In this document: positions 2,373-56,650 of the stretch, in pieces
Position numbering within the stretch: the first letter of the stretch is position 1
Layout: each line of letters begins with the position of its first letter
NCBI GenBank assembly: GCA_944350445.1
Contig: CALVOW010000005.1
Coordinates: forward strand, 997-64,996
Length of the DNA stretch: 64,000 bases
Direction: 5' to 3'
Source of the DNA: an uncultured Bacilli bacterium
GTDB lineage: Bacteria > Bacillota_I > Bacilli_A > RF39 > UBA660
Made by a program: the position numbers and the translations under genes
Notes under the pieces: generated by a model
Database searches by the model: none
What the model saw: the letters and a program-made list of their open reading frames with translations, nothing else
What the model was told of the DNA's origin: nothing

Positions 2373-4973
2373 ATGACAAATAAGGGTTTAAGTAAAGAAA
2401 GTGTAATTTTAAGTCGAAAAAAATATGGAAGTAATGAAATAGAAGTTCATAAAAAAAATAAATTTTTATCCTTGCTTTTAGAGTCTCTTGGAGATCCAAT
2501 TATTAAAATTTTGTTAATTGCCTTAGCAATTAAAATAGTTTTTCTCTTTCAAGATTTTGATTTTTATGAGACAATTGGTATTTTTATTGCTGTTTTTTTA
2601 GCTACTTTTATTTCAACAATTTCTGAATATGGTAGTGAAAAAGCTTTTGAAAAATTAGGAAGTGAAGCTAGTCATATTAATGTTCGAGTAAAAAGATCAG
2701 GGGTTGTTACCGTTATTAATATAAGTGAAGTTGTTGTTGAAGATATTGTTCTACTTGAATCCGGCGATCTTATTCCGGCTGATGGTATATTGTTAGAAGG
2801 AAATATTAGTGTTGATGAATCAATTTTAAATGGTGAAAGCAAAGAAACCAAAAAAAGTCCTAGTATCCTTAAATCGGATACAAAAACTAATAAACTTTAC
2901 CGTGGAACAACCGTTTATTCTGGATATGGTCTAATGCAAGTTACAAGTGTTGGATTAAATACAATGTATGGTAATTTGGCCTTAGAATTACATGAAAATG
3001 AACCAATTAGTCCTTTAAAAAATAGATTAACGGATTTAGCGAAAATAATTAGTCGAATTGGTTATGTTGGAGCTTTTTTAGTTGTAATTGCCTTTTTATT
3101 TTCAAAAATTGTTATGGAAAATAATTATGATTTGCAATTGATTAAAGAAACAATTACTAACTTTCCGCTTATGATGAATTATTTAATATATGCCTTAACA
3201 CTTAGTGTTACAATCATTGTTGTTGCTGTTCCCGAAGGTTTGCCAATGATGATAACTTTGGTTTTATCTAGTAATATGAAAAGAATGTTAAAAAATAACG
3301 TTTTAGTAAGAAAACTAGTGGGAATTGAAACAGCTGGCAATATTAATGTTTTATTAACCGATAAAACAGGAACTTTAACCAAAGGAAAATTAGAAGTAAC
3401 CAAACTTTTAAATGGTACTTTACAAGAAATAAAAAGAGAAGATTTAAATTCTTTTAATAATAAAGTTTATTTCGATGCTTTATTTTATAATACAGATAGT
3501 ATTTTTACCAAAGAAAATGCCGTTATTGGTGGTAACTCAACCGATCGAGCCATATGTAAATTTTTAAATAAAAATATTGCTGTTAAAAAAGAAGTTCTTT
3601 TTAAAAAACATTTTGATAGTCGTGATAAATATAGTTCTGTTACGTTAAAAGATAAAGAAAAAATTACTTATTTCAAAGGTGCTAGTGAAGTTTTACTTCC
3701 TAAATGTCAAAAATATTTAGTAAATGGAAAAGAAGAAAGACTCCCTAATATTAATGGTATAAATGAAAGTATTCAAAAAGCAATGTCAGATGGAATTCGG
3801 GTTATTACACTTGCTTATAAAAAAGGTGATAGTTATTTAAATGATTTAGTTTTTATGGGGCTTATTTATTTAAAAGATGAATTAAGAGATGAAGCAATAA
3901 ATGGTATTGATTTAATAAAAAAGGCTGGTATTCAAGTTATAATGATAACTGGGGATAGCAAAGAAACAGCTACCTCAATTGCCAAAGAAGCGGGAATTTT
4001 AACATCTGATTTAGATTTAGTATTAACAAGCTCGGAAATGAACCAATTAACTGATGAAAAATTAAAAGAGAAAATCAAAAATATTCGCATAATTGCAAGA
4101 GCCTTACCAAGTGATAAAAGTAGGTTAGTTAGAGTTTTAGAAGAAATGCATTTAGTCGTTGGGATGACAGGAGATGGTGTCAATGATGCCCCTGCTTTAA
4201 AAAAAGCTAATGTTGGATTTGCGATGGGAAGTGGTACGGAAGTAAGTAAAGAAGCGGCGGATATTGTAATTTTAGATAATAACATTTTATCAATTTCCAA
4301 AGCAATCCTTTATGGAAGAACAATTTTCAAAAGTATTCGCAAATTTATTATCTATCAATTAAGTGTTAATATGACAGCTTTACTTTTATCAATTATTGGT
4401 CCCTTTATAGGTTTTACATCCCCAATTACAATTGTTCAAATGTTATGGCTTAATATGATAATGGACACTTTTGCTGCCTTAGCATTTTCGTTTGAACCTC
4501 CTTTACTGGAATATATGGAAGAAAAACCTAAAAAAATGAATGAAAAAATTATTAATAGTTATATGTATAATGAAATTATTTTAACTGCTATTTATTCAGG
4601 AACTTTATGTATTTTATTTTTAAAATTACCGATTATAAGACATATTTTTCGAATAGGTGATAATTATAAATATCTAATGACAGCTTATTTTGCTTTATTT
4701 ATTTTTATTGGTATTTTTAATTCTTTTAATGCCAGAACTTATCGAATTAATATCTTTTCCAATATTTTGAAAAATAGGATTTTCTTATTTGTAATTGGTT
4801 TTATTATAAGTGTTCAAATTTATTTAATTTATTTTGGTGGTGATTTATTTCGAACTTATGGACTAACTGCCAAAGAATTTTTGATAATTTTAGCAATTGC
4901 TCTTTCGGTTTGGCCGGTTGATGCCATTCGCAAATTAATATTAAAAAAATTCGGTTTTAAGCGAGCGGTTTAA
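2373..4973 (+). CDS. P-type ATPase, Ca2+-transporting type (P2, PMCA/SERCA-like)
   Basis: 866 aa. Has the phosphorylation motif DKTGTLT, the hinge MTGDGVNDAPALKKA, TGDSKETA, an NGES actuator motif and a 10-TM layout. Confidence 0.85.
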   Translation: MTNKGLSKESVILSRKKYGSNEIEVHKKNKFLSLLLESLGDPIIKILLIALAIKIVFLFQDFDFYETIGIFIAVFLATFISTISEYGSEKAFEKLGSEASHINVRVKRSGVVTVINISEVVVEDIVLLESGDLIPADGILLEGNISVDESILNGESKETKKSPSILKSDTKTNKLYRGTTVYSGYGLMQVTSVGLNTMYGNLALELHENEPISPLKNRLTDLAKIISRIGYVGAFLVVIAFLFSKIVMENNYDLQLIKETITNFPLMMNYLIYALTLSVTIIVVAVPEGLPMMITLVLSSNMKRMLKNNVLVRKLVGIETAGNINVLLTDKTGTLTKGKLEVTKLLNGTLQEIKREDLNSFNNKVYFDALFYNTDSIFTKENAVIGGNSTDRAICKFLNKNIAVKKEVLFKKHFDSRDKYSSVTLKDKEKITYFKGASEVLLPKCQKYLVNGKEERLPNINGINESIQKAMSDGIRVITLAYKKGDSYLNDLVFMGLIYLKDELRDEAINGIDLIKKAGIQVIMITGDSKETATSIAKEAGILTSDLDLVLTSSEMNQLTDEKLKEKIKNIRIIARALPSDKSRLVRVLEEMHLVVGMTGDGVNDAPALKKANVGFAMGSGTEVSKEAADIVILDNNILSISKAILYGRTIFKSIRKFIIYQLSVNMTALLLSIIGPFIGFTSPITIVQMLWLNMIMDTFAALAFSFEPPLLEYMEEKPKKMNEKIINSYMYNEIILTAIYSGTLCILFLKLPIIRHIFRIGDNYKYLMTAYFALFIFIGIFNSFNARTYRINIFSNILKNRIFLFVIGFIISVQIYLIYFGGDLFRTYGLTAKEFLIILAIALSVWPVDAIRKLILKKFGFKRAV

Positions 4974-5035
4974 AAAAAATTAAAATAGGTAATAGTTTAT
5001 TTTTCTATCCATGATATAATAATAAAGAGGTGGAT

Positions 5036-5422
5036 ATGAAAAAAGGATTTACATTAGTTGAATTATTAGGAGTAATTGTTGTTATTGCAATTCTTGGAAC
5101 TTTGGCTGTTGTATCAGTTAATTATTTAGTAAATAACGGTAAACAAGGGGTTTATGAAAACTATGAAACAACTTTAAAGGGAGCAGCTGAAAATTATCTG
5201 ATTAATCATATGGATGAGGTTCCTAATCAAAATGCTAGTATAACAAAAACCTTAGATGAGTTAGTTGCTAGTAATGAAATAGAAAGATTAAAAGATCCTA
5301 ATGGAGGGGATTGTGATTCTAGTTATGTAGTTATATCTAGAGGAGCTGATGTTTCTAATAACTTTAATTTAAGTTATAAAGTTTGTTTAATTTGTGATAA
5401 TTATCGAAGTGATGGTTGTTAA
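5036..5422 (+). CDS. Prepilin-type N-terminal cleavage/methylation domain protein (ComGC/pseudopilin-like)
   Basis: MKKG|FTLVELLGVIVVIAILG is a class III signal peptide with Glu at +5. I moved the start from GTG 5030 to ATG 5036. No assembly genes lie nearby. Confidence 0.7.
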   Translation: MKKGFTLVELLGVIVVIAILGTLAVVSVNYLVNNGKQGVYENYETTLKGAAENYLINHMDEVPNQNASITKTLDELVASNEIERLKDPNGGDCDSSYVVISRGADVSNNFNLSYKVCLICDNYRSDGC

Positions 5423-5440
5423 TATTATTTCCAAATTAAA

Positions 5441-5490
5441 AATGTAGAAAGTTATTTTAATTTAATAATTTTCTACATTTTTATTTTTTT
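5441..5490. terminator. Bidirectional intrinsic terminator between the convergent pilin-like and HIT genes
   Basis: Hairpin atgtagaaa(5442-5450)/tttctacat(5470-5478), followed by a T-run on the plus strand and preceded by an A-run. Confidence 0.5.
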
Positions 5491-5493
5491 TAA

Positions 5494-5892
5494 TTATTCA
5501 TTGGTTGTAAGCATCTTTTTAATTTCTTTTAAATCTTTTAAAAGGTCTTTATTTGAAAAATGTTTAACTTCATCATTTTTATATCTCGGTATAAAGTGCA
5601 TATGCATATGTTTTATTTCTTGTCCATAGTCGAGATTGGTTGATAAAGTTAGACCATCACAATTTAATTTTTCTTTATAAATAGGATATAATTTTTGATA
5701 AATTTTTTGCATATGAAGTAAAATGTCATCGGGTATTTCTAATATATCTTGAAAATGTTTTTTGGGAATGATTAAAGTATCCCCATTAGTAGTTGGATTA
5801 ATATCTAAAAAGGCTAAAACTAGTTCATCTTCATAAATAATTTCACTTGGTATTTCAGAATTAATGATTTTACAAAATAAACAATCTTTCAT
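5494..5892 (-). CDS. HIT (histidine triad) family nucleotide hydrolase
   Basis: 132 aa with the histidine triad motif HMHMHFIP near the C-terminus and an N-terminal CLFCKI. Confidence 0.85.
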   Translation of the reverse strand: MKDCLFCKIINSEIPSEIIYEDELVLAFLDINPTTNGDTLIIPKKHFQDILEIPDDILLHMQKIYQKLYPIYKEKLNCDGLTLSTNLDYGQEIKHMHMHFIPRYKNDEVKHFSNKDLLKDLKEIKKMLTTNE

Positions 5893-5899
5893 ATCTCAC

Positions 5900-6973
5900 C
5901 TAATTTAAATATTCTGTTAATGGTTTTAAACGGTATTTTAATTCAGGCATTTCACTTGTTAAAACAAAACCTGATCTGGCATTAATTACATCTGGTATAC
6001 GGTTAACGACAGTTGCACAAGTAAGTTCTACCGTTTGGGGACGATTAACAACAATAGTTGTATCAGGTTCACCATAAACTGTCCATTCGTTTTTGTCAAA
6101 ATCTTCTTTGGAATAGACTTTTCCGATACATTCACTTTCTATTTCAATACCTTCTTTAGTTTTTGTTGTAACAACAGCACTCATTCCTGTTGCAAGTCCT
6201 GCTTTAATATCCATATTAAGTGTATTAGAATGAATATCATGATTACAAGTAATAGGTACACATTTTTGTGTTTGACTGATAACGTTAAGTCCTAATTTGG
6301 AAGCTAACCAACCATTGGTATTCCACATATAACTTGGAGAAAATTTACCATTGTTGATTAATTCTTGACGTTTTTCGGGCGTTATATCATCACTACTTGC
6401 AACATCTCTTGCAAATTCTTCTAAGGTTAAACCTGCTCCATGAGCTTTGGCAAGGGCAATACCATAATCTTCAACATTATAAGAAGAACTTCCTTTAATT
6501 TTCGTTATTTTAAATGTTGACCCAGAAATAACACTAATTAAATTTCCCCAATAAACATCTTGATACCCACTTCCGGTGATTGTACAATTATTTTCTTTGG
6601 CAATTTTATCTAATTCCTTAGTTAAAGTTGGATTAGAATTATAAGAATCAAAAGCTTCTTCACAAGTTGTAATAGCATTTACTCCGTTTAGGGCACATAT
6701 TTTTAAAACCTCGTAAACATCACTTAATAAACTCATAGTTGTAACAATAGCAATATCTGGTTTTAATTCTTTTAAACTTTTATCTAAATCAAGAACATTT
6801 TGAATTTCTAAATCCGATTTAACTTCTGTAAAGATACTCGATATAGATTTACCAATAATTTTTTCATTTATATCAAAAGCTCCTATTAAATTACAACCTT
6901 TATCAAGTAAATAACGCATCGTATAACGACTCATCTTCCCACAACCAATTTGCACTGCATTAATTTCTTTCAT
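5900..6973 (-). CDS. NAD(P)-binding DapB-like oxidoreductase (amine dehydrogenase / 2,4-diaminopentanoate dehydrogenase-like family)
   Basis: 357 aa with an N-terminal Rossmann motif VQIGCGKMSRY. The overall resemblance to DapB-N-like amine dehydrogenases is recalled from memory, not searched. Confidence 0.45.
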   Translation of the reverse strand: MKEINAVQIGCGKMSRYTMRYLLDKGCNLIGAFDINEKIIGKSISSIFTEVKSDLEIQNVLDLDKSLKELKPDIAIVTTMSLLSDVYEVLKICALNGVNAITTCEEAFDSYNSNPTLTKELDKIAKENNCTITGSGYQDVYWGNLISVISGSTFKITKIKGSSSYNVEDYGIALAKAHGAGLTLEEFARDVASSDDITPEKRQELINNGKFSPSYMWNTNGWLASKLGLNVISQTQKCVPITCNHDIHSNTLNMDIKAGLATGMSAVVTTKTKEGIEIESECIGKVYSKEDFDKNEWTVYGEPDTTIVVNRPQTVELTCATVVNRIPDVINARSGFVLTSEMPELKYRLKPLTEYLN

Positions 6974-7104
6974 TTATCTTCCTCCTAAAATAATTATAAT
7001 ATAACTAATTTTTAAAAGCAATTAGAAAAAAAGGAAAATTCAAATTAAATTTTGATAAATTTAAAAAAATGGTAGCATTTCTAAAAACTTTATGATAGAA
7101 TAAT

Positions 7105-7296
7105 TCATGTGAAATTAAAAAAATCTATTAAATATTCGAAGTAATATAAAATATTTTCTAGAAAGTTAAGGGTTGATGGAACTTAATATTATTTTATATG
7201 AAAGGCTGCTTATTTAGGATTTCGGGATACCGTTATAAAAATTAAGACCAAATTAGGATGGTAACGCGGTTAATTCGCTCCTAGGTTGGTCTTTTT
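7105..7296 (+). promoter_or_regulatory. T-box riboswitch leader, probable Ala specifier (GCU), upstream of the P-loop kinase gene and alaS
   Basis: Stem I distal motifs (agaaag .. ggttgatggaac). Specifier-loop context gaaagGCTgctta. T-box sequence aattaggatggtaacgcgg (7250-7269). Terminator gaccaa..ttggtc (7246-7291) followed by ttttt. Confidence 0.75.
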
Positions 7297-23327: not shown

Positions 23328-23506
23328 TTGGCTTTTTCACCCTCTTTAACTAAAATTATACCACGATTTAATATAATATACATATCATTCTGCTTAACAA
23401 CATCATAATTTGATAATATTGTTGTTGCACTTTCATTTGAATTCATATAATCAAGAATTGTTGTCACTTTATCGCCGTATTTATTATAATATTCTTCCAG
23501 ATTATT
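23324..23506 (-). pseudogene. 3'-terminal 60 codons of a foreign (phage-like) gene, truncated exactly at the last CRISPR repeat
   Basis: The minus-strand frame is open from the repeat boundary: NNLEEYYNKYGDKVTTILDYMNSNESATTILSNYDVVKQNDMYIILNRGIILVKEGEKAK*. It has no start codon of its own. Confidence 0.5.
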
Positions 23507-23507
23507 G

Positions 23508-24436
23508 GTTTTAATACCATTTAAAATGTCATAGAACTAAAACTTATACTCTACATTATCAGTATAAATCTCTGTTTTAATACCATTTAAAATGTCATAG
23601 AACTAAAACTCAATTGTCGACAGTTTGGAGGTGATAAACGTTTTAATACCATTTAAAATGTCATAGAACTAAAACCGAAATTAATAATATCAAAAAAACC
23701 AGTGGTATATCGGAAACAAGTCCGAATCGACCTACTGGTTTTTCTGAAAATAATATACCACAATCTAGCAATAATGTCAAATCGGATACATCTACTAAGT
23801 ATTCTATGCAAGAAATTCAAGATAATACACTGTTAAATAATTCTAAATCAAACCAACAACCACAAAATTCCACAAAGTCTAAACATACTGATTATATAAA
23901 TAGTGAAGTAAATTATTTAGCTGATCAAATAGATAACATAAATAATAATGATAAAGTGACATTTGAAGATATAGATGAAATTGTTTACAATTCTCCATAT
24001 TATAAGTTTTAATACCATTTAAAATGTCATAGAACTAAAACTATTAATTTCCTCCTTTTAAATCATAAATGGTTTTAATACCATTTAAAATGTCATAGAA
24101 CTAAAACCTGGTAGCCATTTTCAACTTTTACTATTTGTTTTAATACCATTTAAAATGTCATAGAACTAAAACACTATTAAAGATCCATTTTATAATCAAA
24201 CAGTTTTAATACCATTTAAAATGTCATAGAACTAAAACAACTAAAATGTCATTTCCAATGAAGTTATAGTTTTAATACCATTTAAAATGTCATAGAACTA
24301 AAACATAATCTAAAATGGACTATTGACATATAACGTTTTAATACCATTTAAAATGTCATAGAACTAAAACAAATTATTATAATAACCAAGAACACTTTCT
24401 GTTTTAATACCATTTAAAATGTCATAGAACTAAAAC
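23508..24436 (-). CRISPR. CRISPR array, leader-distal segment: 10 identical 36-bp repeats
   Basis: Repeats start at 23508, 23574, 23640, 24006, 24072, 24137, 24203, 24269, 24335 and 24401. The repeat in transcription sense is GTTTTAGTTCTATGACATTTTAAATGGTATTAAAAC. Spacers are 29-30 nt, except for one 330-nt segment. Confidence 0.95.
23676..24005 (+). other. Oversized (330-nt) inter-repeat segment: internal fragment of a foreign coding sequence
   Basis: Bounded by perfect repeats (23640-23675 and 24006-24041). One plus-strand frame is open across the whole segment (EINNIKKTSGISETSPNRPTGFSENNIPQSSNNVKSD..NYLADQIDNINNNDKVTFEDIDEIVYNSPYYK). Confidence 0.8.
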
Positions 24437-24611
24437 TTAAATCCTCTTTACTTGGTAAGTTTCTAGTCTTTCTAGCTACTTCTTTTTTTAAAGCTTCATT
24501 AAATTCTTCTTGAGTAGCGAAAGCTTTTTCCACTTTTTCTTCTGTAGTCTGTGTTTCTACATTTTCAGTTACTTTTTCTTCTGTAACATTTTGAACATTT
24601 TCTTGTTCCAT
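24437..24611 (-). pseudogene. 5' fragment of a phage scaffold-like gene, truncated by a CRISPR repeat
   Basis: RBS gaagggag is followed by ATG 24611. The acidic N-terminus MEQENVQNVTEEKVTENVETQTTEEKVEKAFATQEEFNEALKKEVARKTR resembles Firmicute phage scaffold proteins. The last residues of the tracked ORF are encoded by the repeat. Confidence 0.5.
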
Positions 24612-24675
24612 AAATTCTCCCTTCTTTTAAGTCATTAAGTTGGACTTAACCATTCTTTATTGTCTTTATGTTGGA

Positions 24676-24893
24676 CATAATAAAAGAACGTATTTCTACG
24701 TCCTGAAGTGCGTTTATAAGCACTGTACTGACGATAGAATGCCGTTTATTCCCACTTACCCTACTCTGTGTTATCAGCTGGTTCACATTTTGCCTTATCT
24801 AGTGGGTTTAGTTGAATAGAATACGTCTATTCCTGTGCCTCGCGTCATCAGTACACTACTTATAAATATAAAGTAGCGCATAATAAAAGAGCA
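24676..24893 (-). ncRNA. Unclassified structured element, copy B (between the small ORF and the scaffold gene)
   Basis: Minus strand. The ORF terminator (aagagca..tgctctt + ttattat) comes first, then hairpin gcgctactt-N9-aagtagtgt (24853-24879). A closing helix joins gtactga..cg with cgtcagtac. Internal hairpins are gaataga/tctattc, cccact/agtggg and agtgc/gcact. A GAAA-capped terminator ggacgta-gaaa-tacgttc + ttttattat closes it, then the RBS of the scaffold gene about 60 nt later. Confidence 0.45.
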
Positions 24894-25091
24894 TTATTTT
24901 GCTCTTAATTTCATTTCTTTTATATCTTTAATATAAATATTATAATTACCTACATATATTGAAGAATCATCTTCATCTTCGTCAAAAAAAATACCAGTTA
25001 TTTTTTCTCCACTATTTAAAATCACTTCAACTTCTTTTTGAAAGCAATTTAAATACCTTTGTGCAAATTCTTTATTTGTCATTATCATCAC
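24894..25091 (-). CDS. Small phage ORF (65 aa) downstream of the MuF-type gene; candidate immunity protein
   Basis: Overlaps the MuF-like stop by 20 nt. Acidic 65-aa product MMIMTNKEFAQRYLNCFQKEVEVILNSGEKITGIFFDEDEDDSSIYVGNYNIYIKDIKEMKLRAK. The assignment rests on position only. Confidence 0.4.
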   Translation of the reverse strand: MMIMTNKEFAQRYLNCFQKEVEVILNSGEKITGIFFDEDEDDSSIYVGNYNIYIKDIKEMKLRAK

Positions 25092-25899
25092 CTCTTATGT
25101 TTTTAAACTGTGCATTGTTGCTTGCTGGCACAATATGAACACCATTTTTTTCAGAATAATGAATTACAAATGAATTAGTTTCTTCTTCAACATTATAATT
25201 TTTATTAATATAAACTCCAATCACTTTATTTGTACTACATATTTCTTTATTTTGAATATTGCCTTTTATAGTTAATGGTGTGTATCCCTTTGTTGCATAT
25301 TCATTTACCAGTTTTTGTTCTTCTTTTATATCAATATTGAAATAACTCTTTCCTTGAATATATTTTTCACTATTTATATTGTGTTTCAGTTGCTTATCTT
25401 CATTTATCTTTATCAAATTTGGATTTTCTTTAATTTTATTATTTCGTAAAAGCAATTGTTTATATCCATTTAATGCTACTTCATCTGTAACATTATTATA
25501 CACCTTTTTTGCTTCTTTTAGCAAGTTTTCTTTTTTTTCTTTTTTATTTTTCCAATTTTGATAAGTTTTAGTACTTTTTTCTTTAACTTTAGGACTTAAC
25601 TCAGTGCTGCCAATCCATTCATTAGCAGTAATTCTAGTTCTACCAGTCTTATCTAAGAAACTTAAATATTCTTTTTTAGTGTTACTTAAACTATTTTGTT
25701 TTATTTTTATATAAGTAGGCTCTGCTCCGGTTTGTTTAAGCATTGCTATTTCTCTTTTTTTGTTGCGAATAGCTCTTTCGTATTGACGTTGTCTTTGTTT
25801 TTCTACATAAGCCTCATCATTTTCTTTTTTTGTAAAGTCCATTTCTCTTTTTTTTGATAAACCAGGAACAAACATATATCTTGAATGACCACAATTAAT
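25072..25899 (-). pseudogene. Exon 2 of a phage MuF/SPP1-gp7-type minor capsid gene with a C-terminal toxin-like extension (exon 1 absent)
   Basis: Starts INCGHSRYMFVPGLS (NC(R/G)H motif at the end of the MuF domain). YVEKQRQRQYERAIRNKKRE is typical of Firmicute minor capsid proteins. The tail ..NSFVIHYSEKNGVHIVPA is like MuF-fused nuclease/toxin modules. The tracked Met at 25902 is an artefact of the intron end. Confidence 0.6.
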
Positions 25900-26199
25900 C
25901 ATTTCTTGTTAGCTTATATTTCTATAAGTGTCGGACTATATCTTCCTCTAATAGAGGCATCGCATTTCAAATAACGTATCAATAGTTATCTTACATGGCT
26001 AAACTCATCACCATTAGTCTCTACACCTTTTTATAAATATTTCCACACATAACCATAAGCTGTTTTTCGATAAGTATGTCCTTTCAAAACCTTTACTATA
26101 ATGGAACTTGCGTTTAAAGATTTTGTCATGTTGTTTTTTATTAACCATCTTTCGGCTTCTCTAATTCCATTAAATTCCATTACTAATTTATTGTTTTTA
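25900..26199 (-). mobile_element. 3' portion of a group I intron (subgroup IA-like) carrying a homing endonuclease remnant, truncated by a CRISPR repeat
   Basis: Minus strand. P7 5' strand ggtgtagagac, then two hairpins (atgg..ccat and ataac..gttat, P7.1/P7.2-like). P8 is cctct-atta-gagg, with J8/7-like aagatatagtc and P7 3' strand cgacac. P9 is cttata-gaaa-tataag, with terminal G at 25900. The boundary is independently confirmed by spacer 27028-27057. Confidence 0.75.
26031..26198 (-). pseudogene. C-terminal 55 codons of an intron-encoded homing endonuclease (NUMOD/HTH-type DNA-binding tail)
   Basis: The frame is open from the repeat boundary: KNNKLVMEFNGIREAERWLIKNNMTKSLNASSIIVKVLKGHTYRKTAYGYVWKYL*. 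The pattern ..EA...L......I..VL.G...TA.GY.W.Y is the usual C-terminus of phage GIY-YIG/HNH homing endonucleases. Confidence 0.55.
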
Positions 26200-28215
26200 G
26201 TTTTAATACCATTTAAAATGTCATAGAACTAAAACATTTCTTTTTTGCTTTTTCCATTTTTATTTGTTTTAATACCATTTAAAATGTCATAGAACTAAAA
26301 CGCATTTGCAACTACTGATTTGTTTTCTGCAGTTTTAATACCATTTAAAATGTCATAGAACTAAAACTTTACTCTACCTACAACACCATTTCTAGCAGTT
26401 TTAATACCATTTAAAATGTCATAGAACTAAAACTACACAATAACACAATAACGCCAAAAGCAAGTTTTAATACCATTTAAAATGTCATAGAACTAAAACC
26501 ATAAGTTGTAATATCTATAAATTCATCTGGTTTTAATACCATTTAAAATGTCATAGAACTAAAACATTTCTTTTTTGCTTTTTCCATTTTTATTTGTTTT
26601 AATACCATTTAAAATGTCATAGAACTAAAACGCATTTGCAACTACTGATTTGTTTTCTGCAGTTTTAATACCATTTAAAATGTCATAGAACTAAAACACT
26701 GACTTATGCTATACTATATTTGTAATTGTTTTAATACCATTTAAAATGTCATAGAACTAAAACCGACAACTTTAATCTTCCAAAACTTCAATTGTTTTAA
26801 TACCATTTAAAATGTCATAGAACTAAAACTAACACCTATGTATTGATAAAACATTTCAGGTTTTAATACCATTTAAAATGTCATAGAACTAAAACCTACG
26901 ACGCGGTTGGCTTCTCGCTTGAGGAGTTTTAATACCATTTAAAATGTCATAGAACTAAAACCTAGTAAATGTTTAACCCCCTTGATATCTTGTTTTAATA
27001 CCATTTAAAATGTCATAGAACTAAAACGAATATTTGGTATTAATTGTGGTCATTCAAGTTTTAATACCATTTAAAATGTCATAGAACTAAAACACATCTA
27101 CATAACTAAACCCTTGTGGCGTAGTTTTAATACCATTTAAAATGTCATAGAACTAAAACCATTGCACTTATTTTATGACTAATATAGGAGTTTTAATACC
27201 ATTTAAAATGTCATAGAACTAAAACATAATTACATTTTCTAATTTCGATAGGTAAGTTTTAATACCATTTAAAATGTCATAGAACTAAAACAGAATATGA
27301 ATTTTACGAAATCAATTATATGTTTTAATACCATTTAAAATGTCATAGAACTAAAACAGGTGTTAAGACTGCTACAGAGGTAGTATCGTTTTAATACCAT
27401 TTAAAATGTCATAGAACTAAAACAGTGTAATGATGTATGAAAAATTACCTTTTGTTTTAATACCATTTAAAATGTCATAGAACTAAAACATTAATATAAG
27501 CGTCACTATTCCAAGAACAGTTTTAATACCATTTAAAATGTCATAGAACTAAAACTAAGTAGCTTTTAATGAAGATTTAACTTCTGTTTTAATACCATTT
27601 AAAATGTCATAGAACTAAAACTGATTAGCTATTGTTCCTAATGGCGGAGGTGTTTTAATACCATTTAAAATGTCATAGAACTAAAACATCATACATGATC
27701 ACATATTCATCGGGATGGTTTTAATACCATTTAAAATGTCATAGAACTAAAACTATTAGACAATTATATTGTCTCACATATTAGTTTTAATACCATTTAA
27801 AATGTCATAGAACTAAAACAAACATACTTAATTCTTTCTATAACCTTTTGTTTTAATACCATTTAAAATGTCATAGAACTAAAACATATCAATCATTTTA
27901 CTACTATCTTCGGGTGTTTTAATACCATTTAAAATGTCATAGAACTAAAACAATAGAATTGGAGTTTATTGTGTCAATGCAGTTTTAATACCATTTAAAA
28001 TGTCATAGAACTAAAACTCTTTGTTTACTAGCTTATATGTAATTCCGGTTTTAATACCATTTAAAATGTCATAGAACTAAAACGCGACTACTAATCAATC
28101 GACGACTACTAATGTTTTAATACCATTTAAAATGTCATAGAACTAAAACTTATAATCTCTAATTTGAAGCGAATAGCTCGTTTTAATACCATTTAAAATG
28201 TCATAGAACTAAAAC
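26200..28215 (-). CRISPR. CRISPR array, leader-proximal segment: 31 identical 36-bp repeats and 30 spacers of exactly 30 nt
   Basis: Repeats start at 26200 + 66k for k = 0..30. The sequence is the same as in segment 1. It is transcribed from the leader at 28216-28296 toward lower coordinates. Confidence 0.97.
26530..26661 (-). repeat. Duplicated repeat-spacer-repeat-spacer block (identical to 26200-26331)
   Basis: Spacers atttcttttttgctttttccatttttattt and gcatttgcaactactgatttgttttctgca each occur twice (26236/26566 and 26302/26632). Confidence 0.9.
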
Positions 28216-28296: not shown

Positions 28297-28974
28297 TTAT
28301 AACACAAATTCTTCTAATTCATTATCAATAATTAATTTATTTTCATAATTAAGTTTTACTCCATAGCTTTGACTATCAATTAAAATTATTGTTATATTAT
28401 TATAAATAGCATATTTATATAATTCTTCTAATTCTTCTTTCGATAATAACTGTTTTAAGTTTACCAAAAACAAAATTTCATTTGTTTTTAAAACAGACTC
28501 TAAGTCAATTAACAAAAGTAAATTATCAAGTAAATCATTTTTATCATTTATAGATACTTTAAATAATTTAATAATATCATCAATTATTAAATCTTCGTTT
28601 AAAATTAATGGAAGATCAATATTTTTTAATATATTAGCTACACTTTTATACATTTTTTTATAAATATTAAATATTTGTTGTTTGTCTATGTCGCTTAAAT
28701 TATTAATTATTTTTTTATTTAAAGAATTAAGATTTTTTTTAGAATTTAAATCAAGATCAAAAAAATTAATATATATTTCAATTTTTGATTGAAGATTTAT
28801 TTCTTCATTTTGATTATCATAAAAATATAGTTCATTTGTATAATCACCATTTTTTATAAGATATAAATCACTAATAAATTTATAAAACATTTTCTTGTTT
28901 TCAATTTCAACAACTTGAATATTACTATCATTTAAAAAAATATTATTATTAAAATAATTCACTCGTAAATTCAT
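28297..28974 (-). CDS. csn2: CRISPR-associated protein Csn2 (type II-A signature)
   Basis: 225 aa, the last gene of the cas operon, directly followed by leader and array. Size and N-terminus (MNLRVNYFNNNIFLNDSNIQVVEIENKKMFYKF) are typical of canonical Csn2. Confidence 0.85.
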   Translation of the reverse strand: MNLRVNYFNNNIFLNDSNIQVVEIENKKMFYKFISDLYLIKNGDYTNELYFYDNQNEEINLQSKIEIYINFFDLDLNSKKNLNSLNKKIINNLSDIDKQQIFNIYKKMYKSVANILKNIDLPLILNEDLIIDDIIKLFKVSINDKNDLLDNLLLLIDLESVLKTNEILFLVNLKQLLSKEELEELYKYAIYNNITIILIDSQSYGVKLNYENKLIIDNELEEFVL

Positions 28975-29291
28975 AAAACAACCAACCTATCTTCACTATT
29001 AATTATTTTGGTATTTTCACAACCGGAAATAAATTCAATTTTTGAATATTGTTTTTCCGTTATCGTTAAAACTTGAATAATCCCTTTTTTAGGAGCTTTT
29101 TTTCTAATTCTTTCAATTAATAATTTAGATTGTTCACTGTTTAAAACTATTTTAGAATAAACAGATTCTTGCATCATTAAAAAGCCTTCATTTATTAAAA
29201 ATTTTCTAAACATTATATAATTTTTTCGATCTTTTAAATAAACGTTTGGTAAATCAAAGAAAACAATTGTTCGCACTACTCTATCCCTCAT
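28971..29291 (-). CDS. cas2: CRISPR-associated endoribonuclease Cas2
   Basis: About 106 aa starting MRDRVVRTIVFFDLP (Cas2 beta1 with conserved Asp). The tracked ORF extends to 29321, but ATG 29291 abuts the cas1 stop. Confidence 0.85.
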   Translation of the reverse strand: MRDRVVRTIVFFDLPNVYLKDRKNYIMFRKFLINEGFLMMQESVYSKIVLNSEQSKLLIERIRKKAPKKGIIQVLTITEKQYSKIEFISGCENTKIINSEDRLVVL

Positions 29292-30150
29292 AAATAAAAT
29301 CCTTATATTCTTTATTTTCACTTAAAACCTTAAAAGTATTTTTCACATAAAGTTCAATAATATCTTTTAAAGTATATTTTTTTGAATTAAAAGTATAAAT
29401 ATTATTAAAAATATTAATTATATCAAGTTTTAAATTACTATCTAATTCTCTCTCTTGATTATAATAAACAAAAGCATCAATTATAACTCGAAATGGTTCC
29501 ATTAAATCACAAGCCAAATTAAAAGGGTTAAATTCATTTTTATGGTGAATTCCTAATTGTGTTAAATACCCATTGTTAGTTATTTCTTTACTAATTGTTG
29601 ATAATAAAATAGCATAGCCATAATTTAATTTAGCATTTATGATGTCGTTATTACCTCTTGAAAATTTTTTTCCAAATAAGGCATTAAAATAAACCTTAGA
29701 AGCATGTCCTTCGCGATTACTTTTATCCCCTACTCCCACTTCATCAACATAACTAAAAACAAGATTTGCTTGTTTACTTTTAATTTTTTTTAGTAAAAAA
29801 GCTTGATTTATAATTTTATTTTTAACAATTAAAGTCCATAAATTATCTTTATTTTTTAATGTCCATTTTGTTTGTTCAATGATTTTTTTACTGGAATTAT
29901 GCCGAGAATAAAATGGCTGTATTTGACCATAAGGATTATGTTTTTCATCGCAAAAAATAATATTAATTTTGTTATCAGTTAATTCTTTCAATAAATAAGA
30001 AGAAATAGATACAGATATAGAATCAACTATAATTGTATCTATTTCTGATAAGTGAATATATTTTTCTTCAATATCTTTTTTAACGACTAAAAATCTATTC
30101 TTGTAACTTATTTTGGCTTGATTAGCGATGACAACTGTTCTAAAACTCAT
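29281..30150 (-). CDS. cas1: CRISPR-associated endonuclease Cas1 (type II)
   Basis: 289 aa, overlapping the cas9 stop. Typical type II Cas1 N-terminus (SFRTVVI..AKISYKNRFLVVKK) and a conserved C-terminal helical domain (GIHHKNEFNPFNLACDLMEPFR). Confidence 0.9.
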   Translation of the reverse strand: MSFRTVVIANQAKISYKNRFLVVKKDIEEKYIHLSEIDTIIVDSISVSISSYLLKELTDNKINIIFCDEKHNPYGQIQPFYSRHNSSKKIIEQTKWTLKNKDNLWTLIVKNKIINQAFLLKKIKSKQANLVFSYVDEVGVGDKSNREGHASKVYFNALFGKKFSRGNNDIINAKLNYGYAILLSTISKEITNNGYLTQLGIHHKNEFNPFNLACDLMEPFRVIIDAFVYYNQERELDSNLKLDIINIFNNIYTFNSKKYTLKDIIELYVKNTFKVLSENKEYKDFIYEG

Positions 30151-33100
30151 ATCGACTCTCTTTAAGACCAGCAGGAGATTTAAATATTAAAGTTCCAGAC
30201 TTAATATTTATCCCATTTTGTCGTCCTATTCGACTACTCATTTTTTTATCATGAAGTTTTATTTTATCTAAATTTGCATTAGTTGAATTACATTTTAACA
30301 TTTTAAATATTTCTTGTATAACTTCTACTTTCGAAATACTTGTTTTATCATCATTGTTTATTTGCAAATTAAGATTTTGAAATTTATTTAATGATTTAAG
30401 TAATTTAAATTTTTCTAATTCATTACTATATAATGGATAAGAAAGTTCAATTTTATCTAATATTAAATCATATAATTCAATTATTTGTTTATCAAAAATT
30501 TCTAACCAATATTTTTTACCTTCGAAATTATTTTTATAACTTGGAATTCTTTGATTAAAAATAAAATTCAATAAATTTTTATATTTAATTTGTTCTTCTT
30601 TAGTTAACTTAAATTCAATATTATTAATAACTTCAGCAGATTTAGTACCACAACCAGTTATACAACATTTTTGATTTTTATATATTATTTCAATATTAAA
30701 AGGTATTCTATCTTTTTCTATAATATAATTATCACAGTTTAACTCTTTTATAATATAATTATTAATTTCTTCTTTTAAATTTTTCTTTTTAGTTAAAATA
30801 ACTGGTATTCCTATTAATGCTTTTTCTTCTTTATTCTTTTTTTGATACTTAACTAATATCATATATGAATATTGACAAGATGTATAACCACCATATATTT
30901 TAGGATCTAAGTTTTCTTTGATATTTATTAAAGATTTATTAGAAGTTGCTTTATAAATAGTTTCTTTATAAAATGCACCAGTATTAATAAAAGTTTTTTT
31001 ACTTATTAAAATATCATTTCGATATAAAGTATTGGCAATTTTTTCAATAAATTCCTTGGTATTAAATAATACTTCTCCAGTTTTTTCATCAATTTTTAAA
31101 TAATTTTCATCAATACTATTAATAACATAACCATATTTTAATTCATTATAACGTTTTTCAGTAAGTAATTTTTTAACTAATTCAAAAAATTCTGATTTAT
31201 TTAAAGTTCTTTTTAAATATTTTGTTTGATAAATTCCCAAAGTAATTGCTAAATAAGCATCATGAGCATGATGGTAATCATTTAAATTACGATATTTATA
31301 CAATTTAAATCTTTGACGGTAATTACTAGAAATATTGGCTTTTAAATAAATTACATTGGTATTTTTATATAAGCTTTTTAAAATATTAGCTACATGTTTA
31401 GTAATTTGTCTAGTTTCAACTAATTGACGATTGATAAATCCTTCAATATCTTTGTCGGTAAAATCAGTACGCATTAAATTGTTGTACTTCTTAGAAGACA
31501 TTAATTCTATTTCTTTTAAATGTTTCCACCAACCACTTTGTTTTTGAAATTCCCTTGGTAAAACTAGGTTATCACGTTTAATTTGATTTTCTTCTTTTAA
31601 TACCAAGGCTTTATTATCAATAGAATCATCTTTAATTAAAGTTTGAGGTAAGATATGATCAACTTCATATTTATCTGTATATAAGTCTTCAAAAATAATA
31701 GATGTACCAGAATATAAACTTTTACCTTCTTGTAAGAAGTATAAAAATAATTTTTCTTTATCAATTTTTTCAACATTTTTAAGTTTATCTTTTAATTCTT
31801 GATAATTTTTAATTTCGGTTTTATTTTGGTCATATATATTTAATAGTCTTTTTTTCCGATCATCTTTTCTAACTTTCTTTTCATCACTTCTTGACATTTC
31901 TATACTAATATTCTTTGGTTCGTATCCCATATAATCAATTATTTCTTGAACTACTTTTAAAGCTTGATAAATTCCTCGTTTAGTAGCAGGGGAAGTAGCC
32001 AAATCACTAACTAAGGAGTAATCTAATTTCGTAATTTCTTCTTGATTATTTTCTTCTTGAATAAATTTTTGAAAATTATATTGTGGATTATTGATAATTT
32101 GCATGAAATTTTCTTTGGTTTCCCACATTAAATCCATTATTGATTTAAAAGTATTACTTTCTTCATCATAATAGTATTTTGTTTCTAACAATTTTCTTGA
32201 TAAATTACTCCATCCTTTATAATTTTTAGTTAAAATAGTATTCATTTTTGGTAATAAATTAGGATATAATTCTGTAATTTCTTCTTTTAATATTTCTTTA
32301 TCTTCTAAAACAGTTATTAATTCTATAATTTTTTCAGCGTCATCTATTGTTAAATTTGTATCTTTAAAAATACCATTATCACCAAAAAAATCTATATAAG
32401 AATCCATATTATTAGCAAATTTTAAATCAGATGAATAACCATCAATTCTAATATCAGCACTATCTAAATCAATATACATTGATATTTCATTGGTTGTTCT
32501 TAAATAATTTTGAAATTTTTTATCGGTTAAACTACCTTTATTTTTTAAGAAAAATTCTTTATATATTTTATGTTGAAATGCTAAATCTATTTCTTTATCA
32601 TTTATTTTAATTTGCTTTAATTCATTTAAAACTTTAAATTTTGAATATAAAAGAGAATTATTAGGAATAGCATATTCATCTAATAAATAACTAGATTTAC
32701 CTATCATTCTATAAATAAAATTTTTAGCTGATTTTCGAATATCAACAACTTCTTCAAAATTATAAGGCGTTATTTTTCCTTTACTTTTTCTTACCATCCA
32801 AGCAAAAGGATGATTTTCATTTGCAACTAAAGGTCCAACATAATAAGGAATTCGAAATTTTAAAAGTTTAACAATTTTATATTCGCCTTTTACTTTTTCT
32901 AACAAAAAATGATAATATTGTCCTTGATTTTCAAGAATAATTTTTAGTTCGGCTAGATTTAATTGATAAGGAAATTTACCATTTTGGGTATCAGCTATTC
33001 TTGGCAAGAAAGAACTATTTTCCATACTATCTAATATCTTTTTAATTTGTTCTTGATTTTCCTTAGTAGTTATTTGTTCCAAAACTTTTTTTAATTCATT

Positions 33101-34267
33101 AGTAAATTCGGTATAAGTTAATTGATTTCTTATATATTTAGTATAAACAGATAATTCTTCTTTATTATCTTTAATTTTATCTTTAAATAGTCTTCTAAAA
33201 TTACTTTGATAAGGACGAATTAAATCTTTAATAAGGTGTAAATCCTTCTTTTGTTTATTATAATTAGCAACCATTAAATTAGAAATACTAGCACTATCTT
33301 GATTTTTAAAAAGTTGTTTTAAAGAAATCATATCATATAACTCTTTAAAAGCATTAATTACTTCAAATTCTTCTGGTAATTCACTTTGTAATTTATCTAT
33401 TTCCTTATCTATATTTATATCTGTAAAATCTATCTTTTTAACATTTTCGATATTTTTAGCAAATAAATTTTCTAAATTAGCATTACTGCCAGCTAATAAA
33501 GATGCTATTTCTTTACTAACTTTATTGTGAAATTGCGTTGTTAATTCTTTTATAATTGCTTTCTTTTTATCATTTTTATTTTGAATATAAAAGGCATTTT
33601 CTAATTCTTTTAGATTAATATTATCAATACTTGGTTCTTGATTATAAATATCTGTACATATTTCAAAAATTGTATTTAAAACTTCTTCTAATTTTTCTCG
33701 AACATTGATTTTTTCGATATTAAATTCGTCCATATTATAATTAAAATTACCACGATATTTAATAATATGATGAATTGCTAAGTAAATAAGGCGAAGATCC
33801 TCTTTTTCTTTATTAATAATTAATTTTTTTCTTAAATGATAAATAGTTGGATATTTATTATCTACGCAACTAATCATTCTTTTATTTTGATAAATTACTT
33901 CTCTTTTTAAATTACTAAAAATTTCTTTTTTATCGTAATTAGTTAAAGGTATTTTTTTATTTTTAATATCATCAGGACTAATATTACTTGTTTTTAATTT
34001 TTGAAAAAAAGTAGGATCAACTTTATTTATTTCTTCTCTAAACTCATCTTGTAACAATCTAATTCTCTCCCGTCTTCTGTCATATCTTCTCCTTGTACTT
34101 CGAAAATTTCTTCTATCAACAGCTGTTGTTGCCATGTCAAATAATCTAACTCCCCATAAAGATTTTTGTTTATTACCTTTTTTAATTATGTTAAAATTAT
34201 CATCAATAACAGCATAACCTACTGATGCTGTTCCAATATCAAGTCCAATATTATAATCTTTTTGCAT
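30140..34267 (-). CDS. cas9: CRISPR-associated endonuclease Cas9 (type II-A, SpCas9-sized)
   Basis: 1375 aa. RuvC-I IGLDIGTASVGYAV, an Arg-rich bridge helix RRNFRSTRRRYDRRRERIRLL, HNH YEVDHILPQ..DNKALV, and RuvC-III NDYHHAHDAYL. Confidence 0.97.
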   Translation of the reverse strand: MQKDYNIGLDIGTASVGYAVIDDNFNIIKKGNKQKSLWGVRLFDMATTAVDRRNFRSTRRRYDRRRERIRLLQDEFREEINKVDPTFFQKLKTSNISPDDIKNKKIPLTNYDKKEIFSNLKREVIYQNKRMISCVDNKYPTIYHLRKKLIINKEKEDLRLIYLAIHHIIKYRGNFNYNMDEFNIEKINVREKLEEVLNTIFEICTDIYNQEPSIDNINLKELENAFYIQNKNDKKKAIIKELTTQFHNKVSKEIASLLAGSNANLENLFAKNIENVKKIDFTDINIDKEIDKLQSELPEEFEVINAFKELYDMISLKQLFKNQDSASISNLMVANYNKQKKDLHLIKDLIRPYQSNFRRLFKDKIKDNKEELSVYTKYIRNQLTYTEFTNELKKVLEQITTKENQEQIKKILDSMENSSFLPRIADTQNGKFPYQLNLAELKIILENQGQYYHFLLEKVKGEYKIVKLLKFRIPYYVGPLVANENHPFAWMVRKSKGKITPYNFEEVVDIRKSAKNFIYRMIGKSSYLLDEYAIPNNSLLYSKFKVLNELKQIKINDKEIDLAFQHKIYKEFFLKNKGSLTDKKFQNYLRTTNEISMYIDLDSADIRIDGYSSDLKFANNMDSYIDFFGDNGIFKDTNLTIDDAEKIIELITVLEDKEILKEEITELYPNLLPKMNTILTKNYKGWSNLSRKLLETKYYYDEESNTFKSIMDLMWETKENFMQIINNPQYNFQKFIQEENNQEEITKLDYSLVSDLATSPATKRGIYQALKVVQEIIDYMGYEPKNISIEMSRSDEKKVRKDDRKKRLLNIYDQNKTEIKNYQELKDKLKNVEKIDKEKLFLYFLQEGKSLYSGTSIIFEDLYTDKYEVDHILPQTLIKDDSIDNKALVLKEENQIKRDNLVLPREFQKQSGWWKHLKEIELMSSKKYNNLMRTDFTDKDIEGFINRQLVETRQITKHVANILKSLYKNTNVIYLKANISSNYRQRFKLYKYRNLNDYHHAHDAYLAITLGIYQTKYLKRTLNKSEFFELVKKLLTEKRYNELKYGYVINSIDENYLKIDEKTGEVLFNTKEFIEKIANTLYRNDILISKKTFINTGAFYKETIYKATSNKSLINIKENLDPKIYGGYTSCQYSYMILVKYQKKNKEEKALIGIPVILTKKKNLKEEINNYIIKELNCDNYIIEKDRIPFNIEIIYKNQKCCITGCGTKSAEVINNIEFKLTKEEQIKYKNLLNFIFNQRIPSYKNNFEGKKYWLEIFDKQIIELYDLILDKIELSYPLYSNELEKFKLLKSLNKFQNLNLQINNDDKTSISKVEVIQEIFKMLKCNSTNANLDKIKLHDKKMSSRIGRQNGINIKSGTLIFKSPAGLKESRYEF

Positions 34268-34300: not shown

Positions 34301-34392
34301 GTAGTCTTAATACCATTTAAGATGTCATAGAGAGTTAAAATAAAGGTTTACCCTAAACATTAACTTATGAAACTGGTTAGCCAGTTTTTTTT
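34301..34392 (+). ncRNA. tracrRNA
   Basis: Divergent from cas9. The anti-repeat cttaataccatttaagatgtcatagag matches the plus-strand repeat apart from two substitutions. A nexus-like agttaaaataaagg follows, then the terminator hairpin actgg-ttag-ccagt and T8. A tataat -10 box lies at 34282-34287. Confidence 0.8.
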
Positions 34393-55620: not shown

Positions 55621-56423
55621 GTGAAAGGCTCGTCTGTCTGCCCCTCACAGAACCCATCGTGCCCTATTAAGGCAATAGGCTCTTCATATAAATCTTTTGA
55701 TTTAACCTATATTAACTTTAATTCGTGGAATAGGCATTGAAAATCTTGCCCATATTCTATTAAATATTTCATATGTCATACTTTTCTTTTGATGTCTTCT
55801 ATTTAGTATTCTATATGTACTCCATTTAACATATATATAATTGAAGTTTCTTATACTTTATAGATTGACTTCTTATATCTCCTCTTTCTTTTTCCATTTC
55901 TTTTTACCTCCATGTGTAATTAATGTTTCTATTAGAGAAACGATTTATATGCTAGTCCCTTCGCTCCAGAGTCATTACTTCCTTCACCACTACTATGAAC
56001 TAGTCCGACTACTTATAAGTCTTTTACCTAACTTAGTTTTCAATACCTTGCTTTGGTATACCCCTTACTATTGGCAATTTTAAACCTTTTAGACTTGAGG
56101 AACTTATAAGTTCTCCCAGGTATGCTTAATATACCTTGTGAACTCGCCGAGTTCTTAGACCCCGATGGAATTTATAATATCTCGCATTAACGATATTACA
56201 AATGTTGCTTGCTGTAGAAAGGAGTACATAAGCTTCCATATTTATTGTTTTAATAACGAGGCTCAATCACTTCACGCTTTCGCATTTCGGCTCGAACACT
56301 TTCTTGTCTACGCTTAAACCTAATCTCACGACTTTGGCTCCAAGACTAGATACTGGCTCTTTGCTAGAGATTACCAGATTAGGAGTTTCACCCAATTATA
56401 TATTAAGCACCAAACTGGCGCAC
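55621..56423 (-). mobile_element. ORF-less group II intron (Ll.LtrB/IIA-like by motif resemblance) in the valS 5' leader
   Basis: The minus strand starts GTGCGCCAGTTTGGTGCTTAA. Domain I strings are GGGTGAAACTCC and GCCGAAATGCGAAAGCGTGAAG. A J2/3-D3-like CATAGTAGTGGTGAAGGAAGTAATG is present. The D4 RBS GGAGGTAAAAAGAAATG is followed by only a 23-codon ORF. Domain V is GAGCCTATTGCCTTAATAGGGCACGATGGGTTC (55650-55682). D6 ends ..GCCTTTCAC at 55621. Confidence 0.75.
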
Positions 56424-56427
56424 CCTT

Positions 56428-56650
56428 CAAAAATAAAAAAAGACCAAGTCCAAAGGACGAAGTCTTCGTGGTACCACCTTATTTTGTAATAAAATTACCT
56501 TAAAATCTTAATGCGATTAACATTATATCTTACTAAACTCAGATATAATTCTCCAAAGCTACCTTCTGTTAGATTCTTTATTAGTTTCCACCAACCACTA
56601 ACTCTCTGAAAAGTTATCTAACATACTCCTCTTCTTCAACGAATTTAGTT
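56428..56650 (-). promoter_or_regulatory. T-box riboswitch leader, probable Val specifier (GUA), for valS
   Basis: Minus strand. Stem I motifs are cagagagt .. ggttggtggaaac. The specifier context gaagGTAgcttt parallels the Ala leader. T-box sequence aaggtggtaccacg (56468-56481). Terminator gacttcgtcc-tttg-ggacttggtc followed by tttttttattttt (56428-56441). Confidence 0.75.

Follow-up and report, generated by a model that had tools for sequence, protein, structure and literature searches.

The window, a stretch of 64,000 nucleotides (nt), is DNA of an uncultured gut bacterium of the Bacilli that is Erysipelotrichaceae-like and carries a type II-A system of short palindromic repeats, clustered and regularly interspaced (CRISPR), with Cas9. 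In its CRISPR array, one spacer reads across a site in the phage gene of a MuF-like minor capsid protein at which related phages either carry or lack a group I intron. A derivation of this junction spacer from an intron-less allele is supported, as is a loss of both the seed and the protospacer adjacent motif (PAM) of its target through the intron. The same array contains the 3' part of the intron, within a 1,763-bp phage fragment that sits between two repeats as a giant spacer. Taken as a whole, the locus is probably best explained by capture of the phage fragment, later acquisition of a spacer from an intron-less phage, a target split by the intron, and a filter against autoimmunity.

The junction spacer reads GAATATTTGGTATTAATTGTGGTCATTCAA on the plus strand. 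In the sense of the CRISPR RNA (crRNA) it is TTGAATGACCACAATTAAT/ACCAAATATTC, where the slash marks the exon junction, and in coding sense it gives (G)IFG/INCGHS. We assign the crRNA sense to the minus strand, with the leader beside csn2, because the cas genes lie on the minus strand and the repeat is read on it (GTTTTAGTTCTATGACATTTTAAATGGTATTAAAAC), a stretch resembling the anti-repeat of a trans-activating CRISPR RNA (tracrRNA) is present, and the leader-side spacers next to csn2 are wholly different from strain to strain. The two segments that share sequence are the following.

27028..27057, minus strand: junction spacer, the 18th from the leader, with perfect 36-nt repeats on both sides; found only in the window and its twin contig L014.
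25881..25899, minus strand: MuF exon 2, first 19 nt (ATTAATTGTGGTCATTCAA); the junction spacer has the same sequence in its 19 PAM-distal nt.

The last 19 nt of the spacer are the reverse complement of 25881-25899 without a mismatch (19/19), and the identity breaks off at 25899/25900. Both observations agree with the original prediction, which had been made from the letters of the window, and so does the position of the 11 non-matching nt at the PAM-proximal end, which follows from the minus-strand sense of the crRNA. The prediction had also held a chance match to be very unlikely, and chance can be rejected. With up to two mismatches allowed, the 19-mer occurs at two places only in the 64 kb, against 0.01 occurrences expected. 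When the 38 spacers of normal length were blasted against the window, the junction spacer was the sole strong match (E 4e-6, next best 0.016).

In the original prediction, a group I intron had its 3' end at this break in identity, and two features of the fragment bear on this claim.

25900..26030, minus strand: 3' portion of the core of a group I intron (J6/7-P7, P3', P8, J8/7, P9 and the terminal G at 25900), from a truncated RF00028 match and the alignment with the PMBT8 intron.
26031..26199, minus strand: C-terminal fragment (last ~55 codons) of an intron-encoded GIY-YIG homing endonuclease, cut off by a CRISPR repeat; open reading frame (ORF) 26031-26180.

Wide Rfam scans, one of them over 23400-26300, gave no group I match (RF00028) in the region at the gathering and E<=10 thresholds. 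The covariance scan proposed for the intron region gave a match in its narrow form: 25898-26032 was submitted alone so that the covariance model could match truncated, and RF00028 then matched 25912-26032 on the minus strand (model positions 131-253, 26.9 bits, E 1.7e-5, 5'-truncated), below the gathering score of 50. The intron stretch also aligns with the intron of Staphylococcus phage PMBT8, itself an RF00028 match (40.9 bits, E 8e-8). Among GenBank phages, the sole match is a 79-nt intron core in Staphylococcus Sextaecvirus phages.

Full-length copies of the intron are present in two phage contigs, L021 (34 kb) and L026, in the order exon 1, intron with a GIY-YIG ORF (203-209 aa), exon 2. 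They are set among terminase, portal and capsid genes, with terminase and portal upstream of MuF in L021 and portal in L026. The window intron is ~90% identical to them over nt 1-688 of the insert, and the endonuclease fragment 26031-26199 is equivalent to the final part of the 203-aa PF01541 protein in L021. The whole L021 and L026 loci give no RF00028 match at E<=0.1, presumably owing to the 600-nt ORF, and the 5' part of the L021 intron gives no match against Rfam.

In L021, exon 1 ends ...GGAATACTCGGT, the intron occupies 5049-6003 and ends ...AAATG, and exon 2 begins ATTAACTGTGG. By inspection, a U precedes the 5' splice site (...CUCGGU/) and a G ends the intron (...AAAUG/); the window keeps this terminal G at 25900. 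A single guide segment, GTTAAT-GCCGAG (5077-5088), forms both P1 and P10. P1 forms between GCCGAG (5083-5088) and CUCGGU at the end of the 5' exon, with a U.G pair at the splice site, and the contiguous P10 forms between GUUAAU (5077-5082) and AUUAAC of exon 2. We place the 3' splice site at 25900 because of the P1/P10 pairing, an in-frame TAA at 25911-25909 upstream of exon 2, and the comparison of intron-plus with intron-less alleles. The stop codon had been predicted upstream of the MuF reading frame. On the sequence evidence taken together, a group I intron with its 3' end at 25900 is well supported and is predicted to be self-splicing. The intron as such is carried by the truncated RF00028 match, the homology to PMBT8 and the full copies in L021 and L026; the covariance model itself stops at 25912, 12 nt before 25900.

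The homologues of the MuF protein reveal both states of the site. Among 66 homologue clusters, 37 are uninterrupted across it (...GKPAGI[LF]G/INCGHSRY..., or AGI[LF]GINCxHS); instead of ...AACAAGAAATG-ATTAAT... as coding sequence, they read AGI[LF]G/INCGHS. Precise absence of the intron leaves one open reading frame, in these 37 clusters and in many DNA loci. Six clusters from outside arrays begin at MINCGHS and represent calls of exon 2 only, i.e. intron-plus alleles. At the DNA level, intron-less phages show 2-6 mismatches to the junction 30-mer, each of them in the third position of a codon; the fewest, two, are seen at the loci L039, L043, L044 and L047, and some intron-less alleles have GGT like the spacer (L008/L009). 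The intron-plus phages L021 and L026 are interrupted exactly at the position where the spacer match breaks. The spacer had been read as the exon 1-exon 2 junction of an intron-less allele, with intron-plus alleles expected to be broken at this very site, and both parts of that reading hold.

Cas9 requires a PAM plus a contiguous seed. Other spacers of the species, compared with the same phages, point to NGG as the PAM, with a few CAG/CTG. At the junction target the triplet is C-N-G, in which N is the wobble base of an alanine codon; it is mostly CAG, and CGG in L038. In intron-bearing DNA, ~950 nt lie between the 19 PAM-distal nt and the 11-nt seed with its PAM, and L021 and L026 show the displacement that the original prediction had described. 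The junction spacer would be harmless to intron-plus DNA because Cas9 needs the PAM and a contiguous seed. The junction crRNA with Cas9 would thus cut intron-less phages only, leaving intron-plus phages and the chromosomal fragment uncut. The fragment on the chromosome has AGC at the PAM position, and only 9 guide nt match when a mature crRNA with a 20-nt guide is assumed, the length to which crRNA is trimmed in S. pyogenes. These values support the claim that the array copy is not self-targeted.

Several points weigh against this derivation of the junction spacer. The original prediction called for a search for the contiguous 30-mer, and the exact sequence is absent outside arrays in IMG/VR and the JGI metagenomes. 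Look-ups with a degenerate pattern and with protein guidance found nothing closer than two mismatches. About a dozen spacer-protospacer pairs underlie the assignment of the PAM, and CAG stands in place of NGG in several alleles of the junction target. Throughout, the data are metagenome assemblies, from which we infer both the effect of the intron on targeting and the recombination between array and phage that is described below.

Reverse transcription of spliced phage mRNA could also yield a spacer that reads across ligated exons, as it does in systems with a reverse transcriptase (RT) linked to Cas1. The spacer has GGT, i.e. U at position -1, like the intron-plus alleles, its exon 1 end UUUGGU could pair with the guide GCCGAG through wobble pairs, and an assay based on exon-junction spacers is described in PMC11662929. 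We regard this origin as very improbable. Cas1 is a plain protein of 289 aa with PF01867 only, no reverse transcriptase is fused to it or stands beside it in the cas operon, and intron-less DNA alleles are abundant, including those with GGT in L008/L009.

Alternatively, uptake of the spacer may have followed a cut near the homing site of an intron-less allele, made by the GIY-YIG enzyme of an intron-plus phage in the same cell and leaving free ends for adaptation to draw on; acquisition near a homing-endonuclease break had been suggested in the original prediction. The intron does encode such an enzyme, the protospacer spans -11 to +19 around the insertion site, and type II-A adaptation reportedly prefers free DNA ends. 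On the other hand, this is one spacer only among 206 unique spacers, and the dozen or so others within ~4 kb do not cluster at the site, which makes the suggestion decidedly unlikely. We retain ordinary adaptation: the exact source aside, the data show that one strain later acquired the 30-nt spacer from the DNA of an intron-less relative of the phage.

The fragment, in turn, is an old, fixed part of the genome. Its MuF-Ntox50 ORF (25072-25902, 276 aa) occurs in identical form on at least 22 contigs, and 10 of the 10 places listed lie in the same array context, at variable distance from csn2. These 10 places come from several projects and assemblers (record prefixes SAYO22, BRZ, ONAT22 and FRAN19, plus an unprefixed ERZ16268139 scaffold). 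Between strains, the fragment is 98.3-100% identical (10 contigs) and always has the same ends, in arrays with different spacers; two variants with small indels measure 1,734 and 1,770 bp. It lies near the trailer end and is common to all strains, whereas the junction spacer is leader-side and belongs to one strain, so the intron-plus allele was in the lineage before the junction spacer.

De Bruijn assemblers are able to cross identities of 30 nt, which raises the thought of an assembly chimera of host array and phage, joined through identity of spacer and protospacer; a second giant insert treated below (L003/L036) comes from one single contig. For the 1,763-bp fragment we reject the chimera as scarcely credible. 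The same ends and 98.3-100% identity recur in 10 of 10 contigs from several projects and assemblers with differing spacers, and the nearest known phage is only ~90% identical to the fragment.

The relative age also bears on the proposal that the mobile intron is a selected device for CRISPR escape, which breaks the protospacer in a motif that the protein cannot change while splicing restores the protein. The conserved MuF motif G-I-F-G-I-N-C-G-H-S, which the spacer covers, doubles as the homing site of the intron. Its core GINCxHS is the most conserved motif of MuF, present in 37 of 37 contiguous clusters, and the Cas9 mechanism would make intron-plus phages immune to the junction spacer. The intron-plus phage L026, the intron-less L044 with two mismatches and the spacer-bearing L014 share the cohort prefix ONAT22. 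However, array polarity makes the spacer younger than the intron-plus allele, and only 1 of the 206 unique spacers spans the site. The intron adds ~950 bp of new targets, of which one is used (L018 spacer 3 against L026), and homing endonucleases pick conserved sites for reasons unrelated to CRISPR. A selected device is thus unlikely. We regard the escape as a by-product of an existing presence/absence polymorphism, and a selected function as conjecture.

We further compared the spacers of 11 arrays with the fragment. Among 206 unique spacers, two have long matches to it, and both fail at seed and PAM: the junction spacer and spacer 3 of strain L018. In phage L026 the latter has a 30/30 match, next to an AGG PAM, within the intron, whereas in the strain's own fragment it matches at 25/30 and the PAM position reads GAT (no PAM). 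The intron itself is targetable, because this spacer matches it in full next to a PAM. Spacers from this phage region would persist only where the fragment differs at seed or PAM, since a full match next to a PAM would presumably be autoimmune. The two-spacer pattern fits such an autoimmunity filter, with numbers too small for statistics.

In the first step of the proposed series, the 1,763-bp phage piece would have been fixed long ago between two trailer-side repeats. Both of its ends have the length of a spacer.

24437..26199, minus strand: 1,763-bp phage fragment (giant spacer), with perfect repeats on both flanks.
26167..26199, minus strand: leader-side end, the 30-mer X (TAAAAACAATAAATTAGTAATGGAATTTAA) followed by TGG inside the fragment.
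24437..24466, minus strand: trailer-side end, the 30-mer Y (CTAGAAACTTACCAAGTAAAGAGGATTTAA).

The 30-mer X occurs in L021 (identical, followed by TGG) and in L026 (one mismatch, followed by TGG). Y is followed by AGG in L003, L005, L021 and L026, and by AAG in other phages. A related array with the repeat GTTTTAGATCTATGTCATCTTTGATGGTATTAAAAC provides an independent case: L003 3946-8600 (the contig of L036) holds a 4,655-bp intron-less fragment of the phage head module with perfect repeats on both sides, five spacers from the trailer end. Its ends are as follows.

Leader-side end of the 4,655-bp insert in L003/L036: 30-mer TAAAGTTAGACCGTGGTCTAGTTCTACTTA, with TGG inside the insert; no separate phage match found.
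Trailer-side end of the 4,655-bp insert in L003/L036: 30-mer TCATATGATCAAGGTGAAACATTAGATACA, with TGG next in phages.

Spacer-length ends abutting an NGG PAM are therefore seen at 4 of 4 ends of two independent giant inserts. GG stands at 2.5% of positions in these phages (P(GG) 0.025), and the joint chance of the two leader-side PAMs is ~6e-4. The leader-side PAMs point to recombination, because normal adaptation does not predict them. On the simplest reading, which we consider fairly likely, each insert arose when the phage sequence lying between a pair of protospacers was copied into the array, with two resident spacers as partners in recombination or gene conversion; for the window, the most likely route would run between resident spacers X and Y and the phage protospacers. 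A third lineage, L022 at about 5898-7112 (also L023-L025), has an intron-less MuF fragment of ~1.2 kb directly after the terminal degenerate repeat of a II-A array with 75 repeats, followed by host NUDIX, HNH and UvrD genes. From the inserts of the window, L003/L036 and L022-L025, the same phage region was captured three times with different ends.

Two observations count against recombination at this point. Neither X nor Y was found as an ordinary spacer, the state expected before recombination, in the small sample of 11 arrays and 6 loci from metagenome-assembled genomes (MAGs). In addition, a 330-bp oversize spacer of the window has TCT, not NGG, after its first 30 nt in crRNA sense, and the recombination model does not fit every long insert. 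The lack of separate X and Y spacers would suit a different origin, in which adaptation integrated one very long prespacer and processed each end as a PAM-measured spacer end, with no prior X or Y. The fragment indeed lies exactly between intact repeats, and its trailer-side end abuts a phage PAM as normal spacers do. In contrast, Cas1-Cas2 measures ~30 bp between two active sites, and an NGG 30 nt inside the leader-side end of two independent inserts is unexpected for one prespacer. We consider the long prespacer unlikely and prefer recombination. The original prediction had placed the phage copy in the array correctly, but had not recognized it as a giant spacer with two protospacer-like ends.

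Within the fragment, the following features were assigned.

25072..25902, minus strand: ORF with MuF / minor capsid protein 2 exon 2 (25899-25072) and an Ntox50 domain, from Pfam and PHROG matches.
24894..25091, minus strand: 65-aa ORF after the toxin domain, from the ORF list, with weak family matches only.
24655..24895, minus strand: GC-richer long hairpin in the interval between toxin cassette and scaffold gene (minimum free energy -59.5 kcal/mol, z -3.45).
24437..24611, minus strand: N-terminal fragment of a head scaffolding gene, with weak PHROG scaffold matches, cut off by a CRISPR repeat.

The ATG of the ORF 25072-25902, at 25902-25900, consists of the last 3 nt of the intron. The predicted MuF-like reading frame is confirmed by the C-terminal end of PF06152 (Phage_min_cap2; profile positions 273-365 of 366, 55.4 bits against a cut-off of 26.3, E 6.5e-15), followed by PF15542 (Ntox50; 79.4 bits against a cut-off of 22.2, E 3.6e-22). 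An array-borne variant of the ORF, P0004 (10 contigs), has 273 aa and a different N-terminus (MVIQDICLFLVYQ...), consistent with a frameshift; it suggests that the reading frame of the fragment may be under no strong constraint. In related phages, the C-terminal domain of MuF is swapped among Ntox50, PF18810 (PBECR2) and PF03496 (ADP-ribosyltransferase) (homologues P0010, P0036, P0040 and P0064), an exchange of toxin domains typical of polymorphic toxins. The 65-aa ORF may encode an immunity protein. Between portal and MuF of the intron-plus phage L021, a 49-aa ORF (3738-3887) has an Acb2/Tad1 hairpin domain (PF24729), a family of anti-defence sponge proteins.

Of the hairpin, the 3' ~85 nt show conservation among related phages, and the interior varies. 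In the corresponding intergenic region of phage L026 (locus 5272-5356), a skipping-rope RNA (RF02924, 56.8 bits) is found just upstream of the conserved 3' segment. The stretch 24437-24611 is 92-93% identical to phage DNA just upstream of, and running into, the ORF that follows the MuF cassette. A prophage at the site was considered and rejected, as the phage DNA comprises only 1.76 kb and is bounded by repeats.

The assignment to type II-A is based on a cas9-cas1-cas2-csn2 operon, 36-nt repeats, 30-nt spacers and a tracrRNA anti-repeat. The locus has the following parts, the cas genes being taken from the ORF list and from Pfam on identical contigs.

23508..28215, minus strand: type II-A CRISPR array, 41 perfect 36-nt repeats, leader on the 28216 side.
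28297..34267, minus strand: cas operon csn2, cas2, cas1, cas9.
28297-28974, minus strand: csn2.
28971-29321, minus strand: cas2.
29281-30150, minus strand: cas1.
30140-34267, minus strand: cas9.
34307..34392, plus strand: candidate tracrRNA with anti-repeat (TTAATACCATTTAAGATGTCATAGAGAGTTAAAATAAAGG), hairpin and T-run/terminator, divergent from cas9 and located upstream of it.

The array has 40 inter-repeat segments, among which 38 measure 29-30 nt and two are oversize (330 bp at 23676-24005 and 1,763 bp at 24437-26199). The 330-bp segment has perfect repeats on both sides and also occurs in L020 and L011; a search of GenBank phages gave no match to it. Spacers of the array are often aimed at one siphophage family. 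Two consecutive spacers (ATTTCTTTTTTGC... and GCATTTGCAACTAC...) are duplicated, at 26236-26331 and 26566-26661, and for one of the two, phage L004 has a 30/30 match next to a TGG PAM. In strain L018, a transposase (rve, Mu-transpos_C_2) at 4557-5768 directly follows the first spacer after the fragment. The exact repeat is found in MAGs labelled uncultured Erysipelotrichaceae or Bacilli (rumen, roe deer, Hadza gut). Elsewhere in the window, Rfam matches a group II intron D1-D4 at 56150-56648 on the minus strand (146.6 bits); a T-box leader (131.3 bits) lies immediately upstream of this match, and an 807-aa ORF (53144-55567) lies ~580 nt downstream of it.

These findings describe a natural case, at the level of sequence, in which an intron predicted to be self-splicing would hide a phage gene from one Cas9 guide and leave the protein intact. 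Intron-less alleles, intron-plus phages and a spacer-bearing strain all occur in human-gut metagenome cohorts, which makes the idea of intron escape testable with defined sequences. Captured relics would then limit which new spacers a lineage keeps. As a broader speculation, mobile group I introns that home into immutable motifs might bring about a protein-neutral loss of CRISPR targets, with junction spacers selecting for the spread of the intron; second, and independently, captured kb-sized fragments might be kept as a filter on spacer persistence or as a source of toxin-immunity genes. We hold this generalization to be unlikely as it stands.

Phages reportedly escape Cas9 by changes of seed or PAM, through point mutation, deletion or recombination. 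In such escape mutants and, by prediction, in the intron-plus phages, targeting is abolished by the loss of a contiguous seed plus PAM. The difference is that here a ~950-nt intron, predicted to be self-splicing, splits the target and the protein would be unchanged. A full-text literature search returned no report of introns that split protospacers as a means of CRISPR escape.

MuF-toxin fusions are said to be polymorphic toxins of temperate phages. The MuF gene described here shares with them a MuF/minor-capsid domain followed by exchangeable toxins (Ntox50 here, PF18810 and PF03496 in relatives), whereas the window's copy is a truncated remnant enclosed in a CRISPR array. The intron also has a well-known counterpart in td/I-TevI of T4, a group I intron with a GIY-YIG homing endonuclease in a phage gene. 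With the T4 and PMBT8 introns it has in common U at position -1, the terminal G, the P1/P10 guide, an endonuclease encoded within a loop, and a conserved site that is occupied in some alleles and empty in others; from the truncated RF00028 match, it probably shares their core as well. In contrast to them, it lies in the MuF/minor capsid protein 2 gene in phages of uncultured gut Bacilli, and its splicing is predicted.

In RT-Cas1 systems, an assay with the td intron uses exon-junction spacers as proof of RNA-derived adaptation (PMC11662929). That assay and the present array have in common a spacer whose sequence runs through the joined exons on either side of a group I intron. Here, however, there is no RT-Cas1, and intron-less DNA alleles explain the spacer directly.

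Recombination of CRISPR spacers with their phage targets has been demonstrated experimentally in staphylococci, where it yields transducing phage-CRISPR hybrids (Varble et al. 2019, as presented in PMC8616872). As far as that account goes, the shared element is identity of spacer and protospacer, which serves as homology for recombination between array and phage. The inserts reported here differ in that they are relics of 1.8 and 4.7 kb, fixed in the chromosome between repeats, for which the PAM signatures suggest two crossovers each. Two kb-sized phage fragments between intact repeats, with ends abutting a PAM, are the clearest signature of spacer-target recombination in nature that we found here.

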